The notes beneath the pieces are model-generated. The model ran no database searches. It was not told the origin of the DNA and saw only the letters and a program-made list of their open reading frames with translations. A stretch of DNA of 35,212 bases from a virus. Numbering within the stretch: the first letter of the stretch is position 1; each line of letters opens with the position of its first letter. The translations under genes and the position numbers were made by a program. This document shows positions 1 through 35,212 of the stretch, in pieces. The stretch is from the IMG/VR virus record IMGVR_UViG_3300025289_000016, one strand, 5' to 3'.

Positions 1-75
1 AAAGGTGATAACAATTTAGAATAAAAAGGTGATAACAATTTAGAATAAAAAGGTGATAACAATTTAGAATAAAAA
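1..75 (+). repeat. Tandem array: 3 copies (+3 nt) of the 24-bp unit AAAGGTGATAACAATTTAGAATAA; identical to the last 75 nt of the window
   Basis: Read directly: units at 1-24, 25-48 and 49-72. Bases 1-75 equal 35138-35212. Confidence 0.95.
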
Positions 76-82
76 GGGAAAA

Positions 83-286
83 ATGATTAAGAATTCTATG
101 TGGATAGTTTTTGATAATTATCATTTCCGACCCAATTGTTTAATTTTAGGGTGGGATAATCCACAAAAAAAGCTCAAAATTAATAAAACTATTAAATCCT
201 TGTGGGATAAAGAATCTATGGGATGGACAATATTTAATTTAAAAGGGAATTTTTATGAAAATAAAAAGATCGTGTTCTTTAACTAA
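83..286 (+). CDS. hypothetical protein, first gene after the tandem array
   Basis: ORF track. A-rich SD-like AAAGGGAAAAATG context. No recognisable motif. Confidence 0.4.
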   Translation: MIKNSMWIVFDNYHFRPNCLILGWDNPQKKLKINKTIKSLWDKESMGWTIFNLKGNFYENKKIVFFN

Positions 287-1370: not shown

Positions 1371-1386
1371 CTAAAAAGGATGGAAT

Positions 1387-1638
1387 ATGAAAAGAAAAAA
1401 GAGATTACCTTACGAACAGATAGAAAAACTGTTTGAACTAAGAATCAAAATGGAAGCTTATGAGGATTTTTTAAATACCCTTCAGCAGGTAGTAAACGAA
1501 AAGGTTGTAGATTTGCAAGCTAAGGTTAGAAACATCTCTGGATTCGTAGATGTTCCACTTGATAAGAGAATAGACTTTGACTTTGAGAAGTCTACAGTTA
1601 TTTGGGAGGACGAAGATGCCACTAAGAAAACCAAGTAA
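1387..1638 (+). CDS. hypothetical K/E-rich (coiled-coil-like) protein
   Basis: ORF track; AAAGGATGG upstream of the start. Confidence 0.4.
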   Translation: MKRKKRLPYEQIEKLFELRIKMEAYEDFLNTLQQVVNEKVVDLQAKVRNISGFVDVPLDKRIDFDFEKSTVIWEDEDATKKTK

Positions 1639-5562: not shown

Positions 5563-7344
5563 ATGAATGAAAAAGAAATATTAGAACAAGCTCTTGAAGA
5601 TTTTAAAGAAGCTGAAACAGCTGGAGCAGATAATAGAAATATAGCTCTAAAATGTATTAAATTCGTTGATGGAGATCAATGGGACGATTCTATAAGAAAA
5701 GAAAGAGAACAAGATAATAGACCCTGTTTAACTTTAAATAAATTACGAAAATTTGTTAAGGAAGTGTCTGGTGATATTAGGCAGAATAAAATATCTCCAA
5801 AGGTGAGACCTGTGGATGATAATGCAGATGTTGCGGGAGCAAAAGTGAGAAATGAATTAATAAGACATATTGAACAAAACTCTCTTGCAGACGATGCCTA
5901 CGATAATGCTGTTGAGCAAGCCCTTGATGGTGGTTTCGGATATTGGAGAATTATAACTGAATATGCAGAAGATGGTTTTGAACAAGATATTAAAATAAAA
6001 CGAATACCTAATAGATTTACTGTTTATTTAGATTGCTCCTCCCAGGAGTATACTTGTGAGGATGGTAGATATGCATTTATAAGTAATGTAATGAAGGAAA
6101 GAGAATTTAAAACAAAATATAAAAGTAAAATTCCTGCTGATTGGTCTATGCAAAGCGTTGGAGAAGGAAAAGAAGGTTGGTTCCTGGATAATAAAGTTAG
6201 ATTAGTAGAATATTTTTGGAAAGAACCAACAACTAAGGAAATTGCTCAATTGTCAGATGGTAGTATTGTTGATTTTAATAAAAAAATAGAACAAGCCATT
6301 GAAGGAACAGGTTTAGAAATAATTAAAAGGAGATCTGTTAAAACTCATAAAGTAATGTGGGCAAAACTTAGTGGTGATAAAATATTAGAGGGTCCTAATG
6401 AAATCCCCTCTAAATATATTCCTATAGTCCCCGTCTATGGTCATGAAGTAAATATTGAAGGTAAACGATATTATAGGGGATTAATATATGATGCTCTGGA
6501 TGCCATGAGAATGTATAATTATTGGAGAACTCATGCAACTGAAATTGTTGCTCTTGCCCCAAAAGCACCATTTTTAATAACCCCTGAACAGATACAAGGG
6601 CATGATGCCATGTGGCTGGATGCTAATAAAAAGAATTATCCATATTTACTCTATAATCAAATTCCTGGGTTAGCTAAACCCACTAGAGAAGGACAAACAC
6701 AAATACCAACTGCGGTAGTAAATGAATCTAATTTTGCCAATCTGGATATTAAAGATACTATAGGTATGTATGAAGCTTCTTTGGGGCAGGTATCTAATGA
6801 ACGGTCTGGAAGAGCTATTTTAGCAAGACAATCAAGATCCGATACTATTACTTATACATTTATTGATAATTTTGCGAAATCAATTACTTATACCTCTAAA
6901 CTATTATTAGATATGATGCCTAAAGTCTTTGATACGGAAAGAGTATTGAGATTATTAGGAGAAGATGGAAAAGAACTTATGTTACCTCTTAATAAAACAA
7001 TTAAAGATGCTACAACAGGAGAGAATATAATTATAAATGATTTGTCCCAGGGGAAATATGATTTAGTACCTACTAGCGGACCAAAATATCTAACTAGACG
7101 ATTAGAGGCTGCTGCAAGTATGTTAGATTTCTTACAGATGGTTCCTGTGGCTGCACCTGTAATTGCACCAAGACTTGCTAAAATGATGGACTGGCCGGAG
7201 GCTGTTGAAATAGCTCAAGAGTTAAATAAACTATTTGGGGCAACTAAAGAACAGGAAACTACACCAGAAGAAAAAGAGGAGATAGGGGGATCTAGTTCAC
7301 CACCCATGCAGGGGAGCGAAAGAACTAGTGAATATATAAAATAG
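5563..7344 (+). CDS. portal protein
   Basis: 593 aa. The N-terminal IALKCIKFVDGDQWD...RPCLTLNKLRKFV pattern is typical of P22/SPP1-class portals. It sits between terL and the scaffold gene. Confidence 0.85.
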   Translation: MNEKEILEQALEDFKEAETAGADNRNIALKCIKFVDGDQWDDSIRKEREQDNRPCLTLNKLRKFVKEVSGDIRQNKISPKVRPVDDNADVAGAKVRNELIRHIEQNSLADDAYDNAVEQALDGGFGYWRIITEYAEDGFEQDIKIKRIPNRFTVYLDCSSQEYTCEDGRYAFISNVMKEREFKTKYKSKIPADWSMQSVGEGKEGWFLDNKVRLVEYFWKEPTTKEIAQLSDGSIVDFNKKIEQAIEGTGLEIIKRRSVKTHKVMWAKLSGDKILEGPNEIPSKYIPIVPVYGHEVNIEGKRYYRGLIYDALDAMRMYNYWRTHATEIVALAPKAPFLITPEQIQGHDAMWLDANKKNYPYLLYNQIPGLAKPTREGQTQIPTAVVNESNFANLDIKDTIGMYEASLGQVSNERSGRAILARQSRSDTITYTFIDNFAKSITYTSKLLLDMMPKVFDTERVLRLLGEDGKELMLPLNKTIKDATTGENIIINDLSQGKYDLVPTSGPKYLTRRLEAAASMLDFLQMVPVAAPVIAPRLAKMMDWPEAVEIAQELNKLFGATKEQETTPEEKEEIGGSSSPPMQGSERTSEYIK

Positions 7345-7370
7345 TGATAACAATTTAGAATAAAAGGAGA
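7343..7370 (+). promoter_or_regulatory. Single copy of the conserved cassette (A)GTGATAACAATTTAGAATAAAAGGAGA upstream of the scaffold gene
   Basis: 27 of 28 nt identical to the copies at 8211 and 34662. It overlaps the portal stop run TAG-TGA-TAA. The ATG follows 9 nt after GGAGAG. Confidence 0.7.
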
Positions 7371-8210: not shown

Positions 8211-8238
8211 GGTGATAACAATTTAGAATAAAAGGAGA
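8211..8238 (+). promoter_or_regulatory. Single copy of the cassette GGTGATAACAATTTAGAATAAAAGGAGA upstream of the major capsid gene
   Basis: Starts at the base after the scaffold stop codon. The ATG is at 8247. Confidence 0.7.
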
Positions 8239-9451: not shown

Positions 9452-9763
9452 ATGAATTTATTTACTTGCAAAATAGATAGATGGGGTATTGTATCTATCG
9501 CTCTAAATATAGCTTCTGTGGCAATTAATACAACAGCGGAACAGACTTTTACCATCCAGGGGTTGCAAACAGGAGATATGGTTTTTGTAAATAAACCTTC
9601 TCTTAATGCGGGACTTGGAATAGTTAATGCAAGAGTAAGTGATGCAAATACATTAGCAATTACTCTTGTTAATGCAACAGGGGCCGCAATAGATCCTGGA
9701 TCAGAAACTTATCTTGTGTTGTGGATAAGACCTGAGCGTACTCAAAGTATTGCACAGGAATAG
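9452..9763 (+). CDS. small capsid-associated protein (possible decoration protein)
   Basis: Follows the coat gene by 8 nt. All-beta-like sequence (TFTIQGLQTGDMVFVNKPS...ANTLAITLVNATG). Followed by a terminator. Confidence 0.4.
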   Translation: MNLFTCKIDRWGIVSIALNIASVAINTTAEQTFTIQGLQTGDMVFVNKPSLNAGLGIVNARVSDANTLAITLVNATGAAIDPGSETYLVLWIRPERTQSIAQE

Positions 9764-12540: not shown

Positions 12541-13707
12541 ATGGGACTTTTAACTAGAATTAAAATTTGGATTTCAGGAGAGAAACTTTATGCCTCTGAT
12601 TTGAATGCAGAATTTAATAATATTTTAAATAATTTAGACCACACTAAAATAGAAGACGAATCTACCAATATAACTGCCATGAGAGCACTTGCGGATCCCT
12701 ATCCCGGTGGAGCAGAAAGTTTAGCAACCGATTCACAAGACGAAATTCATAGATTACGATACCTCTTAAAACAATTAACACAAACTACTCAATGGTATAT
12801 ATATCCCGATTTAGTCACTAAAACAGCTGCATATACTGCTACCCTAAACGATAAAATAATTCTCTGCGATGCTACAGCTGGAGCTTTTACTATAACCCTA
12901 CCGACTGCGGTAGGTAATAGAGATAAACGATTTATTATTAAAAAGATAGATTCTTCTACTAATACAGTAACAATAGATGGGAATGGTGCTGAAACTATTG
13001 ATGGTGTAGCAACAAAGATATTACAGTATCAGTATCAAAGTATAGATATTATTTCAGACAATGCTAATTGGATAATTGTTTATAATATCAATGTAAATGC
13101 GTTAGAAGATTCTGTTGTCACTAAAACAGCTGCCTATACTGCTACCCTAAACGATAAAACAATTTTATGTGATGCTACAACTGCAGCGTTTACCGTAACC
13201 CTACCGACTGCGGTGGGTTGTAAGGGGAAAAAGTTTATCATTAAAAAGACAGATTCCACTATAAATACAGTAACAATAGATGGGAATGGTGCTGAAACTA
13301 TTGATGGTGTAGCAACAAAAATATTAACAAATCAATATTATGGTGTTTCAATTATTTCAAATAATACTAATTGGATAATTGAACAAAGCATATTTTCTAC
13401 TAATCTAGTTGCATCTGGTAATATACTTGTTCTATCGAATTCAGTACAAGATATTACTATTTCTACCACAAAAGGAGAGCTTCATTGTTTTTATCTTCAT
13501 TCTATTTGGTGCTCATCTGCTGCTACTCAATCATATACCTATGGTGTTGATGTTACAGGTGGTGAACTAGTGAGTCCAAGTGTTCACTCTTATATAATAA
13601 GGACAGGAACAGTAGGCGCCGAAAGTGTATACCTTAGGATTGTTAATGGACATACTGTTAATTCTTTTACTATTGAATATAGAGTATATGAGATAATTTT
13701 ATTTTAA
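12541..13707 (+). CDS. tail fibre/spike protein with an internal tandem domain duplication
   Basis: GAGGAGAATTTATG start. Two ~101-aa repeats (VVTKTAAYTATLNDK...NWII). Confidence 0.6.
   Translation: MGLLTRIKIWISGEKLYASDLNAEFNNILNNLDHTKIEDESTNITAMRALADPYPGGAESLATDSQDEIHRLRYLLKQLTQTTQWYIYPDLVTKTAAYTATLNDKIILCDATAGAFTITLPTAVGNRDKRFIIKKIDSSTNTVTIDGNGAETIDGVATKILQYQYQSIDIISDNANWIIVYNINVNALEDSVVTKTAAYTATLNDKTILCDATTAAFTVTLPTAVGCKGKKFIIKKTDSTINTVTIDGNGAETIDGVATKILTNQYYGVSIISNNTNWIIEQSIFSTNLVASGNILVLSNSVQDITISTTKGELHCFYLHSIWCSSAATQSYTYGVDVTGGELVSPSVHSYIIRTGTVGAESVYLRIVNGHTVNSFTIEYRVYEIILF
12814..13381 (+). repeat. Direct tandem duplication, period 303 nt (12814-13078 vs 13117-13381), inside the fibre gene
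   Basis: Aligned by eye. Long identical runs such as ACAGTAACAATAGATGGGAATGGTGCTGAAACTATTGATGGTGTAGCAACAAA. Confidence 0.9.
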
Positions 13708-14758: not shown

Positions 14759-15697
14759 ATGCCAAATTTTCAATATCAAGATCCGTATAGTGCATTTGGT
14801 GGTGGGTTAGCAGGTGGATTTCAAATGGGAACCCAAATCTGGGCTATGAAGGAAGAAAGAGCTAGAAGAAAGCTAGAAGGAGATATTCAGAAATTAAATA
14901 TATCTCTAAATATTATGCAAAACGATAATTTACCCGATGCAGCAAAAACGGATGTATATAATAATACTTATATTCCTATTATGAATAGATTAAACCCACA
15001 AACTCAATATACTCCAATGTCATCTTGGGAAACAGACGCCTCTAAATCTATGAGAAGACTCAAAAATATAATGGATGATAAGGATATGTCCCTTCCTAGC
15101 AAATTAGGTATGCTGAACGAAATGGAAACAGAAACAAGTATGATAGGAAAGAAAATAGATATTTCTCATTATAGAGCTGGAATAGAAAGAGATACAAGGG
15201 AAAGAGAATTAACAACCCCAGAAGGGTTAACGGGGCTTGGGCAACAGATTAAATCTCAATATGGAGAGGCTGGTATAGCAGGTTACCGAGAAAAGGGAAT
15301 TTCAGGAATTGGGGGTTTACCAACAACAGAGGATTCAGTTGGAAAAGCTGGAACTACTAAAAAACAGATTGAAGATAGAGTTGTGGAAATTAGTAAAGAT
15401 TCTCAAGAATACGCCTTAAAACTTTTAGGATTAAATAAAACAGCAATTACCTACTATTTACAAAATCCCGATCAAATTACTAGCCCAACAGAAGGAATTA
15501 CTCCTAAACAACTTGAAAAATTTTGGGAATATTATTGGACTAGAGCATCACAACTTGCCGATCCTAATATTCTTAAAATAATGAGAGAGAGAGCAGAGCA
15601 ACCTGTTACATATCCAAAAACTACACCTACTCCTGGTACTCCTATTCCTGGCACTGCCGAAGATTATATCAATAAATATAAGGGTGGATTGAAATGA
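14759..15697 (+). CDS. internal virion / ejection protein candidate
   Basis: Assigned by position. GAGGGGG SD. Overlaps the next gene by ATGA. Confidence 0.4.
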   Translation: MPNFQYQDPYSAFGGGLAGGFQMGTQIWAMKEERARRKLEGDIQKLNISLNIMQNDNLPDAAKTDVYNNTYIPIMNRLNPQTQYTPMSSWETDASKSMRRLKNIMDDKDMSLPSKLGMLNEMETETSMIGKKIDISHYRAGIERDTRERELTTPEGLTGLGQQIKSQYGEAGIAGYREKGISGIGGLPTTEDSVGKAGTTKKQIEDRVVEISKDSQEYALKLLGLNKTAITYYLQNPDQITSPTEGITPKQLEKFWEYYWTRASQLADPNILKIMRERAEQPVTYPKTTPTPGTPIPGTAEDYINKYKGGLK

Positions 15698-18600
15698 ATG
15701 GATTACCAAGTTGGGAATCAATAATAAAGACTCCCGATTGGCAACAAATTACAGATGAAGAAAAAAATAATGTTTTTAAATCCTATCTAAAAAACATATC
15801 ACAGCTCCCAGATTGGAGACAACTGTCTCAACCTGAAAAATTTAATGTTACTAGAACAATGGAAAAGCAAGGGGGACTTTATGAGGAACCCAAAAGACCA
15901 TCCATTATTAAAGAATTAATAGTCCCTACCATAAAAGAAATACCAGAAAGAACAATTAGTGGAGTTAAACGATTAGGTAAAGATATTAGCATAGGTGCAA
16001 GGCAATCTTTTGCTAATATGTATCATTTACTTGCTAATATCCCAGGACTGGAAGCTAAAATTGTAGATAAAGTTAGTGCAATAACAGGTCTTCCTAAAAG
16101 TGATTCATTTAAAATCGCTGAAAAATATTTAAGAGATGCCGCAGAACGAGTTGCACCATCTATTGAAGAAGTTAAGGATTATGATAGTTTACTGGATAAA
16201 TTTACACAGGGCATAGGTGCTCTGCCCGGAACCCTAGCTGAGTATGGACCCATAGTTGCACTAAAGGGACCTACCATAGGAATGGCTGTAGTGGATGCCT
16301 TAAGAGAATCTGATAAAGGACTTGTGAATTCCTTAATAGGTGGATTTAGAGGGGCTATAACAGGAAAGGGGTTAGAATTGATAAGTGGTCTGGGACTTCC
16401 CCCTACTAAAAAAGCAATTGCAACAGGTGGATTATTTGCTACAGAACCGCTTGCAAAAGGAGAATATAAAGAAGCTGTAACAGCAGGTGGGCTAGGTATT
16501 GTTCTTGGGCGTATTGGTGGTAAAGAAACAAAAGGAATACGATATGATGCCGAAGCTATTAAAAAGCTTGAGGCTATAGAAAAAGCAGAACGGTATGAAG
16601 TATCTCCCCCCGAAGGTGGGAAATTTATCGACATTAAAAAAACCCCAGAGCCTATAAAAGAAGAAATATATAAGACTGCTGGTGAAGAATATTATAGAGT
16701 AGATAATGCAAAAAAACCCTTTAGAGATTCTTATATATATGGGGGTCCAAAAGCTAAAGAAACTGCTGAAGCCATGGCTAGAAAAATAGCAACATCGTAT
16801 AACAAGGATCAAATAGTATATAAAGTTGATCCTAAAGAAATAGAAAAAAAAGGTGGTAAAGTAACCGGGGTATGGGAAGAAGGAACAGTTGTTATTAAGA
16901 CAGAAAAAGAAATGTCTCCAGAAGCTCTTACCCCCATTAGTGAGCCAATTAAATCATTTACACCAGAACAAGCACGATCCATCATAAGATTAAAATCTCT
17001 TGAGACCCATCCCAAACATACAGAATTTGTTGCTCTTGAAATCTCTAAAAAATTAGGGAAGGAAATAACATCAAAGGATATATTAAAATCAGCAAAGGAA
17101 ATTGAAAAGAACAATATACCTGCTGATGATATTCAAAGAGAATTAGTTAAAATGGCATATACTGATAAATTAAATAGATATGCAGCTATGTCAAAGGAAC
17201 AAGCTGAAAGCGAATATGCCAAAACTGTAGTAGAAATGAGAAGAAAGGCTGAAGAAATTCCTATTGAGAGGGATATTCTAAAGTTATCCGAATCTCATAA
17301 AAAGACCTTAAATATGGTTAGGAATGATATTATACAGGGTGAAGCTGGGAAAAAAGTAACTAACGAAGAAGGAAAATTTATATCAATCCCCTCTACCTTT
17401 CCTAAATATTTTCAAGATAAGGGGTATCTTAAAAAAGAAACACTAAAAACAATTGATAAAGCATTAAGAGATGAACCCTTAACTCAAAAACAACAAGCTA
17501 TTATTCAAGATTTGAATAGTGGTAAAAGGCAGGAAATATTAGAGCAATATAAATTTTATAAAGAAGGTGGCGTGCCGGGTGGAATATCAGCCATTGCTGA
17601 TATGGGAGATTATGCGTTAAGGGAAATGGAATTACCAGCTAAACCATTTATTCCTCAGAAATCTATATTACCTATTTCTGAATTACCTGAAATTGTTGAA
17701 TTATCAGCAAAAATCTCAAAAGGAGAAGTTCCTACAATTGTAAGTAAATTAAGAGCTGGAATGGGAAAAGCTCTTGGGCAATATAGAGAAGGTAAAACAT
17801 ATTTAAAGGCAGAAACAGCCAAAACTCCAGAAGTTGCAAAAAAGACTTTGGCTCACGAAATAGGACATCATGTTGAAAAATTACCACAGGATTATCAAAT
17901 ATTAGGAAAAGCTATCAAATGGACATCTGATATATCTTCTCCACTTTTAAAAAAACAAATCATGGACGAATTGAAAGTTGTATCTCAAATATGGAAACCT
18001 TTTAATGAGGCAGAGAATATTAGATTTACACGATATAGATATTCTCCAGACGAATTATATGCAGATGCATTTAGTGTTCTCATAAATGAACCTTCCTTAC
18101 TATTAGAAAAAGCTCCTATTTTTGTGGATAACTTTTTTAAGAATATAGATAAAAAACCTGAATTTAAAAAGGCGTATGAAAATATACAAGATAGATTAAC
18201 AAATGAAAATACAATAATAGAAAGTAGACATAACGAACTTACTAAAATGATGCAAGAGGGAACCAAGGCATTATTTGAATCTCCAGAAAAGGGCATAAAT
18301 GTATGGGAAGCTATTAAAAGAGAATTTATAACAAAAAATGGTGGTATAATAGATGCAATAAAAAGGGTAGAAAGAAAAACGGGGCAGAAGATTTCAAATG
18401 AAGAAAATCCCTTATATCTTATAGAGGAAATGCCTTATATTAGTGGTCAATTTTATCAACATCTTAGAGATATAACAAACAATATTCTAAATCCCGCATT
18501 GAAAAATAAAATATCAATAGATGATGTTGGAATGGTAGAATTTGCTAATAGAGTTATACATGAACGAAGTAATATTTTTAATCCAAAGGGGCATACCCCC

Positions 18601-20709
18601 GAAACTGCTTTAAAGGAATTAGAATTTCTGAAAAATAAATTTGGTGAAGAAAAATATAGCCAGATATTAGATTACATAGATAAAATAGTTGAAGCCAGAG
18701 TAAAGAATATAATACCTGTTTTAGAGCAATCTGAAATGTTTACACCAGAACTAATATCAATAATTAAGGATAATAAATATTATGCCACATTTTTACCTCA
18801 TAAATATATAGAGAGAACTTATGGAAAAGGAGTATCCGGGCAGATATTTAAACAGATAGGAACTTTTGAAGATATTATAAATCCCTTTACTGCTCTTATG
18901 ATGAAAGATTTTGTGCTTTTAAAATCTGCTATAACTAAAATGGTTAAAAAGGGTAGCATGGATTGGCTTAAAAATAATGGTTTTCAAGATCAGATCCTTC
19001 TAGCAGAATATAAATTCAATGGCAAAGTTAATGTCCCGATAGAACCAATAAATCCAAAGGTAGGCATGGTATCATATCTACATGAAGGCAAAGTAGAAGC
19101 TTTTTATGTTCCTAAAGAAATTGCTGAAAGTTTTAATAGAAGCCCTCATGAGGCCAGCCTAATTATGCGAACCCTTGAAACGCTAACTGTTCCATTTAAA
19201 GACTTGGTAGTTGGTAAAAATCCACCCTGGGCTATTTGGAATTTATTTTACCGTGATATATCAGCAACAGCAAAACAGTTACCTGATGCAAGCTATTGGA
19301 AGATTTTGAAGCTAGTACCTAAAGCCTTACCTCATGTATGGAAAGATGTAATGAGGGGAGAGTCTACTGAGTTAATGCGTGAAATGTATGAAAAGAGGAT
19401 GCTTACTCCTTTACGATTCTGGAGAGGAAGGGATATACCACCAGAAATAGCTATGGCAAGCGAAATATTAAGTTTAGGAAAACCTAACCCTAATACCCCC
19501 ATATATTATGCAACTCTACCCTTTATAAAGTTATGGAATGCTCTTGATAAGCCCGGTAGAATATCAGAAAGACTTACTAAGGTAGCTGGAAAAATATATT
19601 TAAAAGAAACTATGCCAGGAACCACAGCTCATAGGGTAGGACACCTAATTAGAACTAGAGTAGGAACTCCCGATTTATTGGAAGGTGGAATTAGAACAAG
19701 AACTCTTAATACTCTATTTGTTTTTTCAAACGCTGGTATTCAAGGAATGAGAGCTGCAATTGAGTCTGCAAAAGAAAATCCGCTATCCTATGCATGGAAG
19801 ACTGCAAAATACGATATATTGCCAAAAACGATAATGCAGATAGCAAAATTAGGTTTCTTGGGAACTGGAGTAGCTACTATAATGAGCAAGATTCCAGATA
19901 GAGATATGGAGAATTATGTAGTTTTTCCTCTGGGATTATCTGTAAGTGGTAAGGCAGTATATTTTATTAAGCCACACGATTTCCAGGGACAATTAGTAGG
20001 TGGTATATTTTATAATGTTATGAATTCTAGGAAATTAGAAGATTATCAATCCTTACTTGATTTTGCAAACGGACAAATGCCATATTCTAGCCTAAATCCA
20101 TGGATACAAGTTGGTATTGATTGGTTATATTATATGACAGGTAAAAATCCGTATGATGCATGGAAGGGGAGTTATGTCCTACCCGAAAAAATGTATGAGG
20201 CAGGTGGAAAGGGGGCATTAATAGCAATGCTAAAGCATACTGCTAACTCTATGGGTGGATCATCTATATACAGATTTAGAGGCGATAATCCTCAAGCAAT
20301 TAAAGGTGAATTAGAAAAAATATATAAAGTTCCATTTTTAGAACCTGCATTAAGTAGATTTATTAGAGTGTCTGATTATGGCATACAAGAAAAGGCTAGA
20401 GAAGATATTAAAAAAGTTAGAAAAGATAGAGCCATACAATATTATAAGAATAAATCTATTCTATTAAGATTGATGGAAGGCGAGGAATTAACCCAAGAGG
20501 ATATTTCAACCCTTTCTGAAAGTGTAAATATTGATAATCAATTGATGTCCCTGTTGGTAGCTAAGCATGGTTCAGCTCTTGGAAGAGCATTATTCCATGC
20601 ACATTCCACTGAAGGAAAAGTAGCAATAATACAAGGATTTCAAAAGAGGGAAGAAAAGATAAAAAAGAGAAGTGAATTTTTGGGGGGATTAAAGGAAGCA
20701 TTACAATAA
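15694..20709 (+). CDS. 1671-aa large virion (ejected, polyvalent-type) protein with a zincin HExxH motif
   Basis: Largest gene in the window. Gly/Ala-rich hydrophobic segments at about aa 170-280. LAHEIGHHVEK is encoded at 17848-17880, with DELYADAF about 70 aa downstream. Confidence 0.55.
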   Translation: MNGLPSWESIIKTPDWQQITDEEKNNVFKSYLKNISQLPDWRQLSQPEKFNVTRTMEKQGGLYEEPKRPSIIKELIVPTIKEIPERTISGVKRLGKDISIGARQSFANMYHLLANIPGLEAKIVDKVSAITGLPKSDSFKIAEKYLRDAAERVAPSIEEVKDYDSLLDKFTQGIGALPGTLAEYGPIVALKGPTIGMAVVDALRESDKGLVNSLIGGFRGAITGKGLELISGLGLPPTKKAIATGGLFATEPLAKGEYKEAVTAGGLGIVLGRIGGKETKGIRYDAEAIKKLEAIEKAERYEVSPPEGGKFIDIKKTPEPIKEEIYKTAGEEYYRVDNAKKPFRDSYIYGGPKAKETAEAMARKIATSYNKDQIVYKVDPKEIEKKGGKVTGVWEEGTVVIKTEKEMSPEALTPISEPIKSFTPEQARSIIRLKSLETHPKHTEFVALEISKKLGKEITSKDILKSAKEIEKNNIPADDIQRELVKMAYTDKLNRYAAMSKEQAESEYAKTVVEMRRKAEEIPIERDILKLSESHKKTLNMVRNDIIQGEAGKKVTNEEGKFISIPSTFPKYFQDKGYLKKETLKTIDKALRDEPLTQKQQAIIQDLNSGKRQEILEQYKFYKEGGVPGGISAIADMGDYALREMELPAKPFIPQKSILPISELPEIVELSAKISKGEVPTIVSKLRAGMGKALGQYREGKTYLKAETAKTPEVAKKTLAHEIGHHVEKLPQDYQILGKAIKWTSDISSPLLKKQIMDELKVVSQIWKPFNEAENIRFTRYRYSPDELYADAFSVLINEPSLLLEKAPIFVDNFFKNIDKKPEFKKAYENIQDRLTNENTIIESRHNELTKMMQEGTKALFESPEKGINVWEAIKREFITKNGGIIDAIKRVERKTGQKISNEENPLYLIEEMPYISGQFYQHLRDITNNILNPALKNKISIDDVGMVEFANRVIHERSNIFNPKGHTPETALKELEFLKNKFGEEKYSQILDYIDKIVEARVKNIIPVLEQSEMFTPELISIIKDNKYYATFLPHKYIERTYGKGVSGQIFKQIGTFEDIINPFTALMMKDFVLLKSAITKMVKKGSMDWLKNNGFQDQILLAEYKFNGKVNVPIEPINPKVGMVSYLHEGKVEAFYVPKEIAESFNRSPHEASLIMRTLETLTVPFKDLVVGKNPPWAIWNLFYRDISATAKQLPDASYWKILKLVPKALPHVWKDVMRGESTELMREMYEKRMLTPLRFWRGRDIPPEIAMASEILSLGKPNPNTPIYYATLPFIKLWNALDKPGRISERLTKVAGKIYLKETMPGTTAHRVGHLIRTRVGTPDLLEGGIRTRTLNTLFVFSNAGIQGMRAAIESAKENPLSYAWKTAKYDILPKTIMQIAKLGFLGTGVATIMSKIPDRDMENYVVFPLGLSVSGKAVYFIKPHDFQGQLVGGIFYNVMNSRKLEDYQSLLDFANGQMPYSSLNPWIQVGIDWLYYMTGKNPYDAWKGSYVLPEKMYEAGGKGALIAMLKHTANSMGGSSIYRFRGDNPQAIKGELEKIYKVPFLEPALSRFIRVSDYGIQEKAREDIKKVRKDRAIQYYKNKSILLRLMEGEELTQEDISTLSESVNIDNQLMSLLVAKHGSALGRALFHAHSTEGKVAIIQGFQKREEKIKKRSEFLGGLKEALQ

Positions 20710-30854: not shown

Positions 30855-30894
30855 GACAGGATATGACAGGATATGACAACATAGGACAATAATC
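30855..30894 (+). repeat. 10-bp iterons GACAGGATAT x2, then degenerate GACAACATAG and GACAATAATC
   Basis: Read directly. Confidence 0.85.
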
Positions 30895-30930
30895 TAATAC
30901 TCTTGATATATCTTAGTATGTCTATATTCC

Positions 30931-30970
30931 TATACAACATTATACAACATTATACAACATTATACAACAC
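30931..30970 (+). repeat. 10-bp iterons TATACAACAT x3 plus TATACAACAC
   Basis: Read directly. Confidence 0.95.
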
Positions 30971-30983
30971 AGCACAGGACAGG

Positions 30984-31003
30984 TTATCAACAGGTTATCC
31001 ACA
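30984..31003 (+). repeat. TTATCAACA and TTATCCACA, 11-bp phasing (ACAGGTTATC[AC] units)
   Basis: Read directly. TTATCCACA equals the consensus DnaA box. Confidence 0.85.
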
Positions 31004-31094
31004 ACCTTTCAATACAGGACAGTAGAAGAGGACTAAACAACAACGGTAGAACAAGATAGGATAGGAGTTGGATCCACCCCTTTTATGTTTCTAC

Positions 31095-31125
31095 TTATCC
31101 ACAGGTTATCCACAGGTTATCCACA
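31095..31125 (+). repeat. Three head-to-tail TTATCCACA boxes at 11-bp spacing (TTATCCACAGG units)
   Basis: Boxes at 31095-31103, 31106-31114 and 31117-31125. Confidence 0.95.
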
Positions 31126-31381
31126 GCTAGGAAATGGTTTACATAATACTAGTTATGGGAAGCAAAACAAGTAACCCCCTAGAAAATAAGAGAAAATTCA
31201 ACGATACTTAATGACTTTGCTCTCCCAATGGCGTAATAATTACCCAATATTCTCCTTTCACACAAACAAGAGGGGGGGTGGGGCCGGGTCGTGGAGTGAA
31301 TTATAATATATCCAACCGTTCTTTGGTTGCGAAATAAAAATTGAGAATTTTGCGATCTTCTATTTTCTGTTTCAATATTTA

Positions 31382-32410: not shown

Positions 32411-33628
32411 CTAATCACAAAAAAGGTCTAAAATTTTAGGGACATCTTTAATATTGATCTTAATCTTTTTATTCTCTAAAATCTTCATCGTTTCCTCAGC
32501 TTGGCGGTTCTGTTTTTCTTTAGCCTGTTCTGTAGATAATTCTTGAATTTCTTTATAACCTAATTCTTGTGATTTTTGTTTCCGTTTCTCATACCTCTCA
32601 TCTCTTGCTTTCCTCTGCTCTGGAGTCAATGGCTTAATGGGATCCCCATTGTAATTATAAATCACATCGGGGCCGGTGAAAGTTTTCTGAGTTTTAATTT
32701 TCGTCCAATTGAGGTAGTTTTGGAATTTCTCGCTATAAAGAGTAGTAGGATTGAGGTTATGCTTCATTTTTGGATCCTTATACCATGCTTGGATCATATT
32801 AGTATGAACGGTTTTATACTGCTCAATTTCACGGTATCCTTCTTTCCAACGGTCCCGGATTAGTCGCTTAACAGCTGGAATGGGTTTATAATCAGTGCCT
32901 AATTTGGAATTGAGGTCAATAAGAATATCCCGGCAGTAGGCAGGTAACCATTCTTTAGGAAGTTCTTGGGGCATATCTTGGGTTGAAATCTTCACAGGAA
33001 GTTCACAAGAAGGTTCTTGAGAAAATGAAGGTTGGTAAGAATAGTCTTCAAGACTATCTTCTAGCTCATCGGTAGGTTCTTCTGTAGAAAGGTTAGGTGA
33101 ATTTATTGGTTCTTGAGAATTTGGTGGTTCTTGGGGGGGTGGGGGTTGGTTTTGGGTTTGGATTGGATTAGAAAAAAAAGGACTTTCTTTTTCTTTATTA
33201 ATTTCTTTTTCTTTATTATTACTATCTTCTTCTTTATTACTAGTACTATCTATATTACTATATGATGACATTTTAGCAGAATGGCGTTTTAGCACATTGG
33301 GACTTTGGCAGATTGGGATTATTGCAGATTGCGGTTTTGGTGAAGTAAAATTTCGGTTATATCTGATATAATATTCCATTTTCCCATCTTGTCTTTTTTG
33401 TCGTTTTAAATATCCGTTTTTTTCTAATTCCTTTAAACCTTCTCTAGTTGCTCGGATTCCATCTTTACTTTCTTTTACTATTCTATCAATTGCAAAATTC
33501 CAATCATCAGGTTTGGAATAAAGATAAAGAAATAAACCCTTTGCTTTCCATGATAAATTTTTATCAATTGCAATCTCATTTTTTATTTGCGTAAATCCAA
33601 CTTCTTGCTTTCTAAGTATTTGTTTCAT
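32411..33628 (-). CDS. replication organiser / initiator (N-terminal winged-helix, Pro-rich linker, C-terminal Phg_2220_C/DnaD-like domain)
   Basis: GFTQIKNEIAIDKNLSWKAKGLFLYLYS...GIRATREGLKELEKNGYL fits a wHTH. ILIDLNSKLGTDYKP...RLIRDRWKEGY...W..DPKM..NLNPTTLYS.KFQNYLNW matches the conserved phage C-terminus domain as I remember it. AGGAGG SD. Confidence 0.65.
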   Translation of the reverse strand: MKQILRKQEVGFTQIKNEIAIDKNLSWKAKGLFLYLYSKPDDWNFAIDRIVKESKDGIRATREGLKELEKNGYLKRQKRQDGKMEYYIRYNRNFTSPKPQSAIIPICQSPNVLKRHSAKMSSYSNIDSTSNKEEDSNNKEKEINKEKESPFFSNPIQTQNQPPPPQEPPNSQEPINSPNLSTEEPTDELEDSLEDYSYQPSFSQEPSCELPVKISTQDMPQELPKEWLPAYCRDILIDLNSKLGTDYKPIPAVKRLIRDRWKEGYREIEQYKTVHTNMIQAWYKDPKMKHNLNPTTLYSEKFQNYLNWTKIKTQKTFTGPDVIYNYNGDPIKPLTPEQRKARDERYEKRKQKSQELGYKEIQELSTEQAKEKQNRQAEETMKILENKKIKINIKDVPKILDLFCD

Positions 33629-33720
33629 GGTACCTCCTATTTTTTTATCTCAAAAAAACTATCCAATTTATAGATTCTAATGCAACATGTAATGTTCTAT
33701 GTAATGTTCTATATAAAATT

Positions 33721-33790: not shown

Positions 33791-33866
33791 TGGTGGAGAT
33801 AACCGGGATTGAACCGGTGGCCTTCTGGTTGCAAGCCAGACGCTCTCCCAACTGAGCTATACCCCC
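33791..33866 (-). tRNA. tRNA-Ala (anticodon UGC), CCA encoded
   Basis: The reverse complement folds by hand into a 76-nt cloverleaf: acceptor GGGGGTA/TATCTCC with G3:U70, D arm GCTC/GAGC, anticodon stem TCTGG/CCAGA with loop CTTGCAA, T arm ACCGG-TTCAATC-CCGGT, then ACCA. Confidence 0.9.
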
Positions 33867-34073: not shown

Positions 34074-34102
34074 TTGACATTTGATTTTTGACATGATATT
34101 TT
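34074..34102 (+). promoter_or_regulatory. Promoter facing 34149..35137: -35 TTGACA, 17-nt spacer, -10 TATTTT; an extended -10 (TGGTATGAT) also lies at 34117-34125
   Basis: CTTGACATTTGATTTTTGACATGATATTTT. Its core is identical to the repressor promoter core at 22814-22830 (opposite strand). Confidence 0.5.
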
Positions 34103-34148: not shown

Positions 34149-34682
34149 ATGCCTCTGATGAAAGACTTAAAGGGGGATAATCGTATACCACAGATAGATT
34201 TTCAGGATGAGGACATTCAATCTCTCTCCCCAGTAGATAGAGCATATATTACCCTTCGGCGTCAGGGGTGGAATAAGAAAGAAATATCTCTTGCCCTTCA
34301 TATGAGTCATAATTATCTTATCACAAAAGAAAGGGACCTTTCAAAGAAGTATGATCTTACGGATCCAAAACTTGTCCGTTTAGCCTATCGGGCGCTTTTA
34401 AATATTTTACATGGCAAGACATGGGGGGGGATAGATAAAATCAAGGACTCTACAGTCCTTGGAGCTGTCTCGGAAATATATTCCAGAGCCCAGCCAGAAG
34501 TTCATCGGGAAGAAGTGTTTACCCATTCATTTTGTCATATAGCCCTAGACCAATATAAAAACAATAAGATAATTGATATTGATATTAATCAAGCAATTGG
34601 AAAGGGATATTGTTATCCCCTTGCATTATATCCACAAGACGAGATTGTATTGGCATTAGAAGGTGATAACAATTTAGAATAA
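34149..34682 (+). CDS. HTH protein with a sigma-70 region-4 / LuxR-like segment (candidate transcription regulator; small terminase is an alternative)
   Basis: LSPVDRAYITLRRQGWNKKEISLALHMSHNYLITKERDLSKK resembles a region-4-type HTH. The last six codons (GDNNLE-stop) are supplied by the conserved cassette. Confidence 0.45.
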   Translation: MPLMKDLKGDNRIPQIDFQDEDIQSLSPVDRAYITLRRQGWNKKEISLALHMSHNYLITKERDLSKKYDLTDPKLVRLAYRALLNILHGKTWGGIDKIKDSTVLGAVSEIYSRAQPEVHREEVFTHSFCHIALDQYKNNKIIDIDINQAIGKGYCYPLALYPQDEIVLALEGDNNLE

Positions 34683-34689
34683 AAGGAGA
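34662..34689 (+). promoter_or_regulatory. Single copy of the cassette GGTGATAACAATTTAGAATAAAAGGAGA
   Basis: 28 of 28 nt identical to 8211-8238. Confidence 0.7.
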
Positions 34690-34953
34690 ATGTTTCACGT
34701 GAAACATCGGAAAAAAGGAGTAACAAAATATAAATTGGCAGAAGATGGTGAGGGATTATTGCTTTGTTTTAAACCTAAGCAAAGAACATTTTATCATGTT
34801 CATGAGGACGAATTAACTGAAAAAGAGAAAGAAATAAGAGACTATCTTCTCTCACATAAAACAAAAAAAGCAGTCTGGTGTTATCCGAATCAATGTAGAG
34901 GAGTATGGTGGAGTCTTAAAAACCATAAAAAGCAAGAGATGACAACAGTTTAG
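34690..34953 (+). CDS. hypothetical protein (true start may be GTG 34699)
   Basis: ORF track. ATG 34690 abuts GGAGA with no spacing, whereas GTG 34699 has about 10-nt spacing. The start region is an 18-bp palindrome. Confidence 0.4.
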   Translation: MFHVKHRKKGVTKYKLAEDGEGLLLCFKPKQRTFYHVHEDELTEKEKEIRDYLLSHKTKKAVWCYPNQCRGVWWSLKNHKKQEMTTV

Positions 34954-34960
34954 AATAAAA
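34938..34960 (+). promoter_or_regulatory. Degenerate cassette copy GATGACAACAGTTTAGAATAAAA (no GGAG)
   Basis: 19 of 23 matches to the cassette. Its TAG is the stop of 34690..34953. The ATG at 34961 follows immediately. Confidence 0.5.
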
Positions 34961-35137
34961 ATGCCGGAATATAAAAGTAAAACCAAACATGGGGTTGTAT
35001 ACCAAGTTACAAAAGGTAAATCAGGAAATTATACTTGTGACTGCCCTGGTCATAAATATATAGGTGACTGTAGACACATTGCATTAGAAAAGCGGAAATC
35101 GGGTTATTTGGGGAAAGGTGATAACAATTTAGAATAA
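34961..35137 (+). CDS. 58-aa SWIM-type zinc-finger protein (not in the ORF track)
   Basis: CDCPGHKYIGDCRH fits CxCx(n)CxH. The ORF runs into the first array unit and ends GDNNLE-stop. Confidence 0.5.
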   Translation: MPEYKSKTKHGVVYQVTKGKSGNYTCDCPGHKYIGDCRHIALEKRKSGYLGKGDNNLE

Positions 35138-35212
35138 AAAGGTGATAACAATTTAGAATAAAAAGGTGATAACAATTTAGAATAAAAAGGTGATAACAAT
35201 TTAGAATAAAAA
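35114..35212 (+). repeat. Tandem array: 4 copies (+3 nt) of the 24-bp unit AAAGGTGATAACAATTTAGAATAA at the window end
   Basis: Units at 35114, 35138, 35162 and 35186. The last 75 nt equal the first 75 nt. Confidence 0.95.

Follow-up and report, generated by a model that had tools for sequence, protein, structure and literature searches.

The closest described counterparts of the element analysed here are the start-associated sequences (SAS) and extended start-associated sequences (ESAS) of Cluster K mycobacteriophages. The element itself is a short intercistronic cassette, found at several gene junctions and, in tandem, as a 24-bp repeat array in the IMG/VR virus record IMGVR_UViG_3300025289_000016 (hereafter the window, meaning the whole 35,212-nt stretch of DNA). 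The SAS and ESAS are short asymmetric motifs that occur in one orientation at the ribosome binding site (RBS) of a subset of genes, and their function is unproven (Pope et al., 2011; PMC3203893). The dispersed copies of the cassette have a close analogue in the SAS, and the statement in the initial annotation that no phage element with this architecture had been described was too strong (PMC3203893). Both motifs are short and asymmetric, lie at several gene junctions in a single orientation and overlap or abut the RBS and sometimes the upstream stop codon. In addition, both are lineage-specific, both are present or absent gene by gene between related phages, and a role in translation initiation is suspected for both. 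Seen by analogy and not by homology, the cassette is an SAS-type element: an asymmetric, one-orientation repeat near the RBS at five loci of the window and two loci of a sister lineage described below. The two sequences are, however, unrelated. The SAS consensus GGGATAGGAGCCC lies 3-7 nt from the start codon and contains the Shine-Dalgarno (SD) sequence, whereas the cassette is placed 5' of the SD, with 7-17 nt between its end and the start codon, and carries a second SD-like element of its own together with stop codons in all three frames. The cassette is located in the structural/late unit and the SAS in the non-structural half of the genome. Furthermore, the cassette forms tandems of variable copy number, none of which are reported for the SAS (PMC3203893).

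Several other systems share part of this architecture. The STAB-SD 5' stabiliser is a non-initiating SD-like sequence that stabilises mRNA (Agaisse and Lereclus, 1996; reviewed in PMC4113751). Like the cassette, it is SD-like and non-initiating, is able to base-pair with the 16S rRNA 3' terminus and lies upstream of the real RBS of a highly expressed gene. In contrast, the cassette is intercistronic, multi-copy and tandem. The PeSL cassettes of T4-type phages combine a sigma-70 promoter with a stem-loop terminator (Arbiol et al., 2010; PMC2839356; PMC4122927). They too are short repeated intergenic cassettes that account, through recombination between copies, for much of the indel difference at ~96% identity; the cassette described here is several-fold shorter and has no detectable promoter or stem-loop. 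Bacterial and phage minisatellites, or variable-number tandem repeats, arise by slipped-strand mispairing. The array resembles them in its perfect head-to-tail units and in a copy number that differs between populations, whereas its unit duplicates a motif dispersed over gene junctions, and the sister lineage lacks the array altogether. The stoperators of L5 and Cluster A are repressor-binding DNA sites which double as the operator at the early promoter. These are likewise asymmetric sites in short intergenic gaps, oriented in one direction relative to transcription and present many times per genome (contrasted with the SAS in PMC3203893); for the cassette, by contrast, neither a binding protein nor an operator copy is evident, and its copies are dispensable between close relatives. 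What looks new is the pairing of three-frame stops with a decoy SD, gain and loss strictly abutting the SD, and the tandem form of variable copy number.

From sequence comparison, the array may well be a copy-number-variable tandem amplification of a 23-26-nt intercistronic stop-plus-SD cassette that would act on the mRNA, a role we infer and a reading we hold with about even confidence. Tandem Repeats Finder detects two arrays of period 24 whose matches are 100%, one spanning 1-77 with 3.2 copies and the other 35114-35212 with 4.1 copies. Perfect copies of the 24-bp unit AAAGGTGATAACAATTTAGAATAA stand three times at 1-72 and four times at 35114-35209, and bases 35138-35212 are identical to bases 1-75. 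Matches to the 24-mer with at most 3 mismatches number ten in the window and were found in 0 of 100 dinucleotide-preserving shuffles. The array described in the initial annotation was thereby borne out, as was its position between small genes (those for the 177-aa helix-turn-helix (HTH), 84/87-aa and 58-aa Cys/His proteins) and a long same-strand structural block. Three of the ten matches, at 7340, 8208 and 34659, fall outside the array, and a further, more diverged copy lies at 34938; the initial annotation had overlooked these.

The identical ends of the window are explained by the repeat itself. The overlap lies entirely within the repeat, the only terminal overlaps possible in the window being 1, 2, 3, 27, 51 and 75 nt, lengths that the 24-nt period alone gives; the periodic runs measure 99 nt at the end and 77 nt at the start. 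The 75-nt overlap is thus a circular assembly graph cut inside the repeat, the walk beginning and stopping on one and the same 75-mer. With the overlap collapsed, 4 units plus AAAGG are left. Since a de Bruijn walk crosses the collapsed loop only once, the copy number in the sample of the window appears to be at least 4. Of the two figures first proposed, four as a minimum therefore stands and seven finds no support.

The same phage was located in other public assemblies through exact-protein look-ups. Herein, the array is internal with 2 units in three MEGAHIT k141 contigs (L075, L076, L077) and with 3 units in a JGI contig from sample 3300025312 (L074), whereas two further contigs (L078, L079) end after 3 units plus AAAGGTGAT, which gives at least 4 copies. 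Identical head-to-tail units in 2, 3 or at least 4 copies, over seven contigs from JGI and ENA assemblies, characterise a variable-number tandem repeat. By de Bruijn logic the 2- and 3-copy alleles appear genuine and not collapsed, since their periodic stretches of 53 or 77 nt are shorter than the k-mers used. The earlier caution about the copy number in the window contig was justified, and the number does vary between samples (2, 3 and at least 4). Other contigs of this phage are cut elsewhere, near window positions 1734 and 31885 (by arithmetic from the look-ups), so the genome assembles as a circle in which the array is no fixed end. The proposal of a circular or terminally redundant genome consequently holds for the circle and fails for a physical terminal repeat, as other assemblies cross the array.

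That the array is an assembly artefact or a physical direct terminal repeat is for these reasons very improbable. The contig does start and end within the repeat, and the 75-nt overlap consists of repeat units only, as such an explanation would have it. Arrays of two and three units are nevertheless internal in contigs of four other assemblies, built with k-mers longer than the array, and the cuts in these contigs fall elsewhere in the genome, with no fixed end. The direct terminal repeat was rejected on this crossing of the array and these cuts elsewhere. Phages of the P22-like group package by the headful mechanism with circular permutation. The portal and coat proteins of the window are P22-like, which suggests headful packaging and circular permutation here as well and speaks against a fixed physical end. 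For metagenomics, this means that the terminal repeat by which the window contig is flagged as complete is only a minisatellite, and that neither the copy number of such an array nor the length of an apparent direct terminal repeat is to be trusted at face value. As a separate observation, two Logan contigs from short-k assemblies (L095, L096) stop at locus position 2359, inside the scaffold/coat copy of the cassette; breaks of this kind indicate that the dispersed repeat fragments assemblies of this phage.

Outside the array, the 23-nt core GGTGATAACAATTTAGAATAAAA recurs at 7343, 8211, 34662 and 34938, which with the array makes five loci in the window (Table 1). The coding (+) strand carries all copies. 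The three dispersed copies that are undiverged run directly into AAAGGAG, and the start codon follows 7-17 nt past the motif. The last array unit runs into AAAGG(G) at 73-78, the weak SD of the 67-aa gene, whose ATG is at 83, and between the diverged 34938 copy and its ATG there is no SD. The upstream stop codon is placed just 5' of the motif (portal and scaffold genes) or is the terminal TAA of the motif (177-aa and 58-aa genes). GDNNLE is the C-terminus of both the 177-aa and the 58-aa protein because the cassette encodes this tail; for the 58-aa gene, the last codons and the TAA stop are supplied by the first array unit.

The distribution of the cassette is narrow, both within the genome and among phages. 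Across the two lineages, the six junctions that bear it all lie within one transcription unit, and no copy was found in the early or minus-strand blocks, though genes there use the same AAAGGAG SDs. A 25-kb megablast query matched nothing among the GenBank phages. When IMG/VR, JGI metagenomes and GTDB genomes were scanned for exact 20-mers, the only finds were the sister lineage and three unrelated sequences (six single hits, judged to be chance), so that the motif is neither widespread nor a host element. Among 64 coat-protein relatives, the motif stands upstream of the coat gene in L001 only, and analogous junction repeats are absent from four more distant P22-coat relatives (L003, L004, L018, L019). 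The first of these, L003, contains an unrelated 21-nt tandem repeat in three copies, CCATTGGACAAAATGTCTCAG, at 488-554.

The sister lineage, represented by contigs from other JGI and ENA samples, has the same gene order as the window and is 96.7% identical to it over 7.1 kb (L001, L065, L067) and ~95% identical over the small-gene region (L086-L091). At four junctions the cassette is present in one of these ~95-97% identical lineages and absent from the other. The 19-nt difference at the portal/scaffold junction is the sole indel of 10-100 nt within the 7.1 kb. The sister counterpart of the 58-aa protein has 54 aa, and its gene overlaps the next (67-aa) gene by 8 nt. This pattern shows precise gain or loss of the cassette, in every case at a resident SD, and tandem duplication that arose independently at two junctions. 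The diverged copy at 34938 is common to both lineages, and the motif is therefore older than their split. The scaffold/coat copy, as the only one unchanged between the lineages, may be the oldest. No outgroup by which to polarise the differences was obtained: relatives of the 67-aa protein are confined to a single 90% cluster, and the IMG/VR scans gave none, the profile being too variable for use.

Table 1. Cassette copies, array parts and associated features of the window, with the corresponding state of the sister lineage
Feature	Position	Strand	Window	Sister lineage
Cassette copy, portal/scaffold junction	7343..7365	+	AGTGATAACAATTTAGAATAAAA, 1 mismatch; then SD 7363-7369, ATG 7380	19 nt of cassette (TAAAATAGTGATAACAATT) absent (L001, L065, L067)
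Cassette copy, scaffold/coat junction	8211..8233	+	GGTGATAACAATTTAGAATAAAA; then SD AAAGGAG 8231-8237, coat ATG 8247	Cassette unchanged, both immediate flanks differ
Cassette copy, 177-aa/84/87-aa junction	34662..34684	+	23 extra nt bracketed by AAGG; encodes DNNLE* tail of 177-aa protein	GCATTAGAAGGAGAATG; protein ends GECFT
Diverged cassette copy, 87-aa/58-aa junction	34938..34960	+	GATGACAACAGTTTAGAATAAAA, 3 mismatches	Present, further diverged
Array 5' part, 58-aa/67-aa junction	35114..35212	+	4 units + AAA; whole junction n x 24 + 6 extra nt bracketed by GGGAAA	TTATTTGGGGAAAAATGATTAAG, no array
Array 3' part as cut by the assembler	1..77	+	3 x AAAGGTGATAACAATTTAGAATAA + AAAGG	
Empty site, 92-aa/83-aa junction	1371..1389	+	CTAAAAAGG directly followed by ATGGAATATG	Two tandem copies right after AAAAAGG, first diverged (L086 2134-2200)
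58-aa Cys/His-rich gene	34961..35137	+	SWIM-like by eye, no Pfam hit; ends in first array unit	
67-aa gene	83..286	+	Directly 3' of array; first after array in long same-strand block	
177-aa protein gene	34149..34682	+	N-terminal LuxR/GerE/sigma-region-4-type HTH and long helices	
Best sigma-70-type promoter of the region	34074..34102	+	TTGACA-17-TATTTT with TG, ahead of 177-aa gene	Conserved
Replication-initiator gene	32411-33628	-	Phg_2220_C and HTH_36 domains; adjoins origin-like cluster	

Some further differences between the lineages were noted. In the sister's older tandem copy (L086 2134-2160, L088 1989-2011, L090 1775-1797), TTTATTCTAT stands against the consensus TTTAGAATAA with its central segment inverted, which suggests a quasi-palindrome template-switch mutation; the head of this copy differs between samples (TGAAAC, TAATAAC, TGATAAC). 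The start of the 84/87-aa gene (window 34690-34730, L086 1180-1230) is remodelled with a 16-nt indel, and the string AAGGAGTAACAAA found there belongs to the coding sequence of one lineage but forms SD plus spacer in the other, a second sign of SD-mediated junction shuffling. Two genes of the window, encoding proteins of 248 aa (305-1051) and 103 aa (9452-9763), are absent from the sister (L086/L088 and L065); as the boundaries are gene junctions, these indels suggest moron-like genes.

The unit combines features that bear on translation. Every reading frame of the unit is closed, one by TGA and TAA, the second by TAG and the third by TAA, and the unit begins with the SD-like head AAGGUGAT. 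Duplex energies were computed against the 16S 3' tail GAUCACCUCCUUUCU, a generic assumption that may not be that of the host, and amount to -9.9 kcal/mol for AAGGUGAU, -9.3 kcal/mol for AAAGGAG and -7.2 kcal/mol for the AAAGGG of the 67-aa gene. The unit contains no ATG or TTG, and its sole GTG lies inside the SD-like site, which leaves no usable start codon; an optimally spaced AUU-UAG start-stop follows GGUGAU in each unit. With this predicted pairing to the generic tail, the head would be a non-initiating SD-like site of the STAB-SD or standby type. The unit RNA is AU-rich and unstructured, with fold z-scores of +0.35 to +1.27 in the scaffold, coat and array contexts relative to shuffles, and no Rfam family matches the junction RNAs. 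Identity with a PeSL cassette was rejected, there being neither a promoter call nor structure (z-scores >= 0). Finally, the cassette is bracketed by short direct repeats, namely its own AAGG head and the resident SD.

In mechanistic terms, the AAGG...AAGG bracket would render the cassette prone to slipped-strand duplication and deletion, as well as to ectopic copying or template switching between SD regions, events for which such a bracket is a textbook substrate. Slippage and template switching together would produce the tandem array, the copy-number polymorphism and the differences from junction to junction. Once part of the polycistronic mRNA, the cassette would terminate and uncouple upstream translation and offer one or more extra landing or holding sites for the 30S subunit just 5' of the genuine SD. 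The outcome would be more de novo initiation on the downstream cistron, or its protection, in a standby-site, STAB-SD-like or enhancer-like manner. The number of units may tune this effect or be selectively neutral.

A possible though unlikely alternative is that the cassette is a neutral, selfish or purely mutational by-product, an AAGG-bracketed sequence near AAAGGAG SDs that duplicates, deletes and is miscopied, and that is tolerated since stop and SD are restored. This would fit its dispensability at four junctions between near-identical lineages, its restriction to one narrow phage lineage with no comparable junction repeat in the distant P22-coat relatives examined, the variation of the head motif in older copies, and the perfect identity of the array units, which suggests a recent origin. 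The confinement of all six junctions to one transcription unit, when the early and minus-strand blocks share the same SDs, leans instead towards function, as does the position of the cassette ahead of the genes for scaffold and coat. A hint of constraint comes from the copy at the coat gene, which is identical in both lineages although its immediate flanks diverged. Furthermore, four motif-related indels at ~95-97% identity would be a high rate for microhomology of 4-6 nt alone.

Several points nonetheless weigh against a stop-plus-SD cassette that acts on mRNA. Function at the RNA level is something we infer and would have to be reconciled with an SD-like head that is not strictly conserved, being weakened in the 7343 copy (AGUGAU, -5.3 kcal/mol) and variable in the sister's older copy (TGAAAC, TAATAAC). 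Three of the copies are missing from the sister lineage, so that the phage can do without any benefit they bring, and the element may be neutral. The cassette is limited to one narrow lineage, and the databases searched hold no outgroup by which gain could be told from loss. In addition, a STAB-SD-type effect would need RNase J in the host.

A DNA-level role in transcription was also considered, the initial annotation having likened each unit to -35-independent phage late promoters such as those of T4. The units would then be recognised by host RNA polymerase, with or without a phage factor, and tandem units would be tandem promoters for the scaffold, coat and first structural-block genes, an explanation we consider improbable. 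TAGAAT, present in every unit, does match TATAAT at 5 of 6 positions, and copies stand ahead of the two most abundantly needed virion proteins. Taking GGTGATAA as the -10-like element instead would give a leader of ~25 nt that includes the SD, and a factor could hide among the unknown open reading frames (ORFs). Yet a sigma-70 scan called no + strand site in the array or the dispersed copies, which lack both a -35 at 16-18 nt and a TG extension, AATT being the bases ahead of TAGAAT. The geometry is also wrong: in single or last copies the end of TAGAAT is 4 nt away from GGAG and 10-18 nt away from the start codon, so that a start ~7 nt past it falls in or after the SD and leaves a leader of 5-12 nt without an SD. 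The T4-late likeness proved weak, TAGAATAA matching TATAAATA at 5 of 8 positions only. Scans of ORFs against Pfam or PHROGs, a search that was not exhaustive, revealed no domain of an RNA polymerase, a sigma factor or a sigma-like late factor. Finally, a better, canonical promoter upstream (Table 1) likely starts the transcription unit that holds all cassette copies, and the sister, with the same gene order, does without the array. The TAGAAT proposal finds no support on these grounds.

Additional promoter and binding motifs were tried and rejected. A sigma-28-like TAAC-N15-GGTGATAA fits by eye within the array only and not in single copies, and an SP6-type promoter (AGGTGA...TAGAA) has, by eye, the wrong spacing, with no single-subunit polymerase. 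Boxes for Fur, LexA and IHF are poor matches by eye. Minus-strand promoter calls (TTGTTA-17-TAGAAT or TACAAT) depend on the flanks and are absent at other copies.

A protein-binding DNA site was weighed as well, whether stoperator-like or a small-terminase/pac platform, for the 78-aa repressor-like protein, the 177-aa HTH protein or the terminase small subunit. Direct-repeat arrays are typical binding platforms, the 177-aa HTH gene lies 450 nt upstream, and the L5-type stoperators provide a precedent in their asymmetry, single orientation and short intergenic gaps (PMC3203893). We judge this quite improbable, however, since the array and two dispersed copies are missing from the sister, whose 177-aa protein is 94% identical, and none of the copies overlaps any predicted promoter or operator. 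Normally, pac sites are conserved and confined to one locus, not dispersed, and Foldseek and profile searches give generic HTH matches only. The 177-aa protein has no direct Pfam or PHROG hit and ~100 remote homologues of 130-180 aa; its AlphaFold model has a pLDDT (predicted local distance difference test) of 74, and Foldseek against the PDB gives HTH-domain matches only, with E above 1. The protein may be either a small terminase or a regulator, and nothing was found that links it to the cassette.

More generally, since a sister with the same gene order lacks the array, the latter cannot be essential as a pac site, an origin or a partition site, nor be the only late promoter. The earlier suggestions of a pac site, a partition centromere or a late promoter, the last taken as essential, find no support, the array being absent from a ~95-97% identical relative and its unit being dispersed. 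The pac or small-terminase platform was rejected on these same two grounds, and the small terminase gene (terS) was not identified in profile and Foldseek searches. An iteron-type origin at the array was likewise rejected, origin-like features lying instead at 30855-31126. The latter cluster contains two sets of 10-nt iterons, GACAGGATAT in 2.4 copies and TATACAACAT in 3.9 copies, and five same-strand DnaA-box 9-mers (TTATCCACA four times and TTATCAACA once).

Beyond the stop-plus-SD cassette as set out above, a bolder and rather improbable version would make it an active SD-targeting micro-element that copies itself into late-gene SD sites as a portable expression module. It would then serve as a ribosome landing pad or as a site for an unrecognised phage factor, and the tandem number would set the output of the genes that follow, as a rheostat that is heritable and mutates rapidly. 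If the stop-plus-SD reading itself is right, it reveals a small and very simple way of rewiring phage operons, in which ~23 nt bring all-frame stops and an extra ribosome site. Such a cassette could be inserted before the SD of any gene, precisely removed or amplified, and would be nature's equivalent of the insulators and RBS parts of synthetic biology. It would also allow the start-associated repeats of other phages, long unexplained, to be studied in a tractable model.

Other features of the window were recorded in passing. The structural block includes a 1671-aa ORF (15694-20709) with no Pfam hit and no PHROG better than E = 0.004. A tRNA-Ala (anticodon TGC) at 33791-33866 (-), found by both ARAGORN and Rfam, lies in the intergenic region that separates the replication block from the divergent 177-aa gene. 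An intergenic direct repeat of ATGTAATGTTCT in 2.5 copies (33687-33716), just upstream of the replication genes on the minus strand, could be an operator. In the tail/baseplate-like ORF 12541-13707, a 303-nt tandem duplication (12814-13381, 84% identity) represents a duplicated protein domain.

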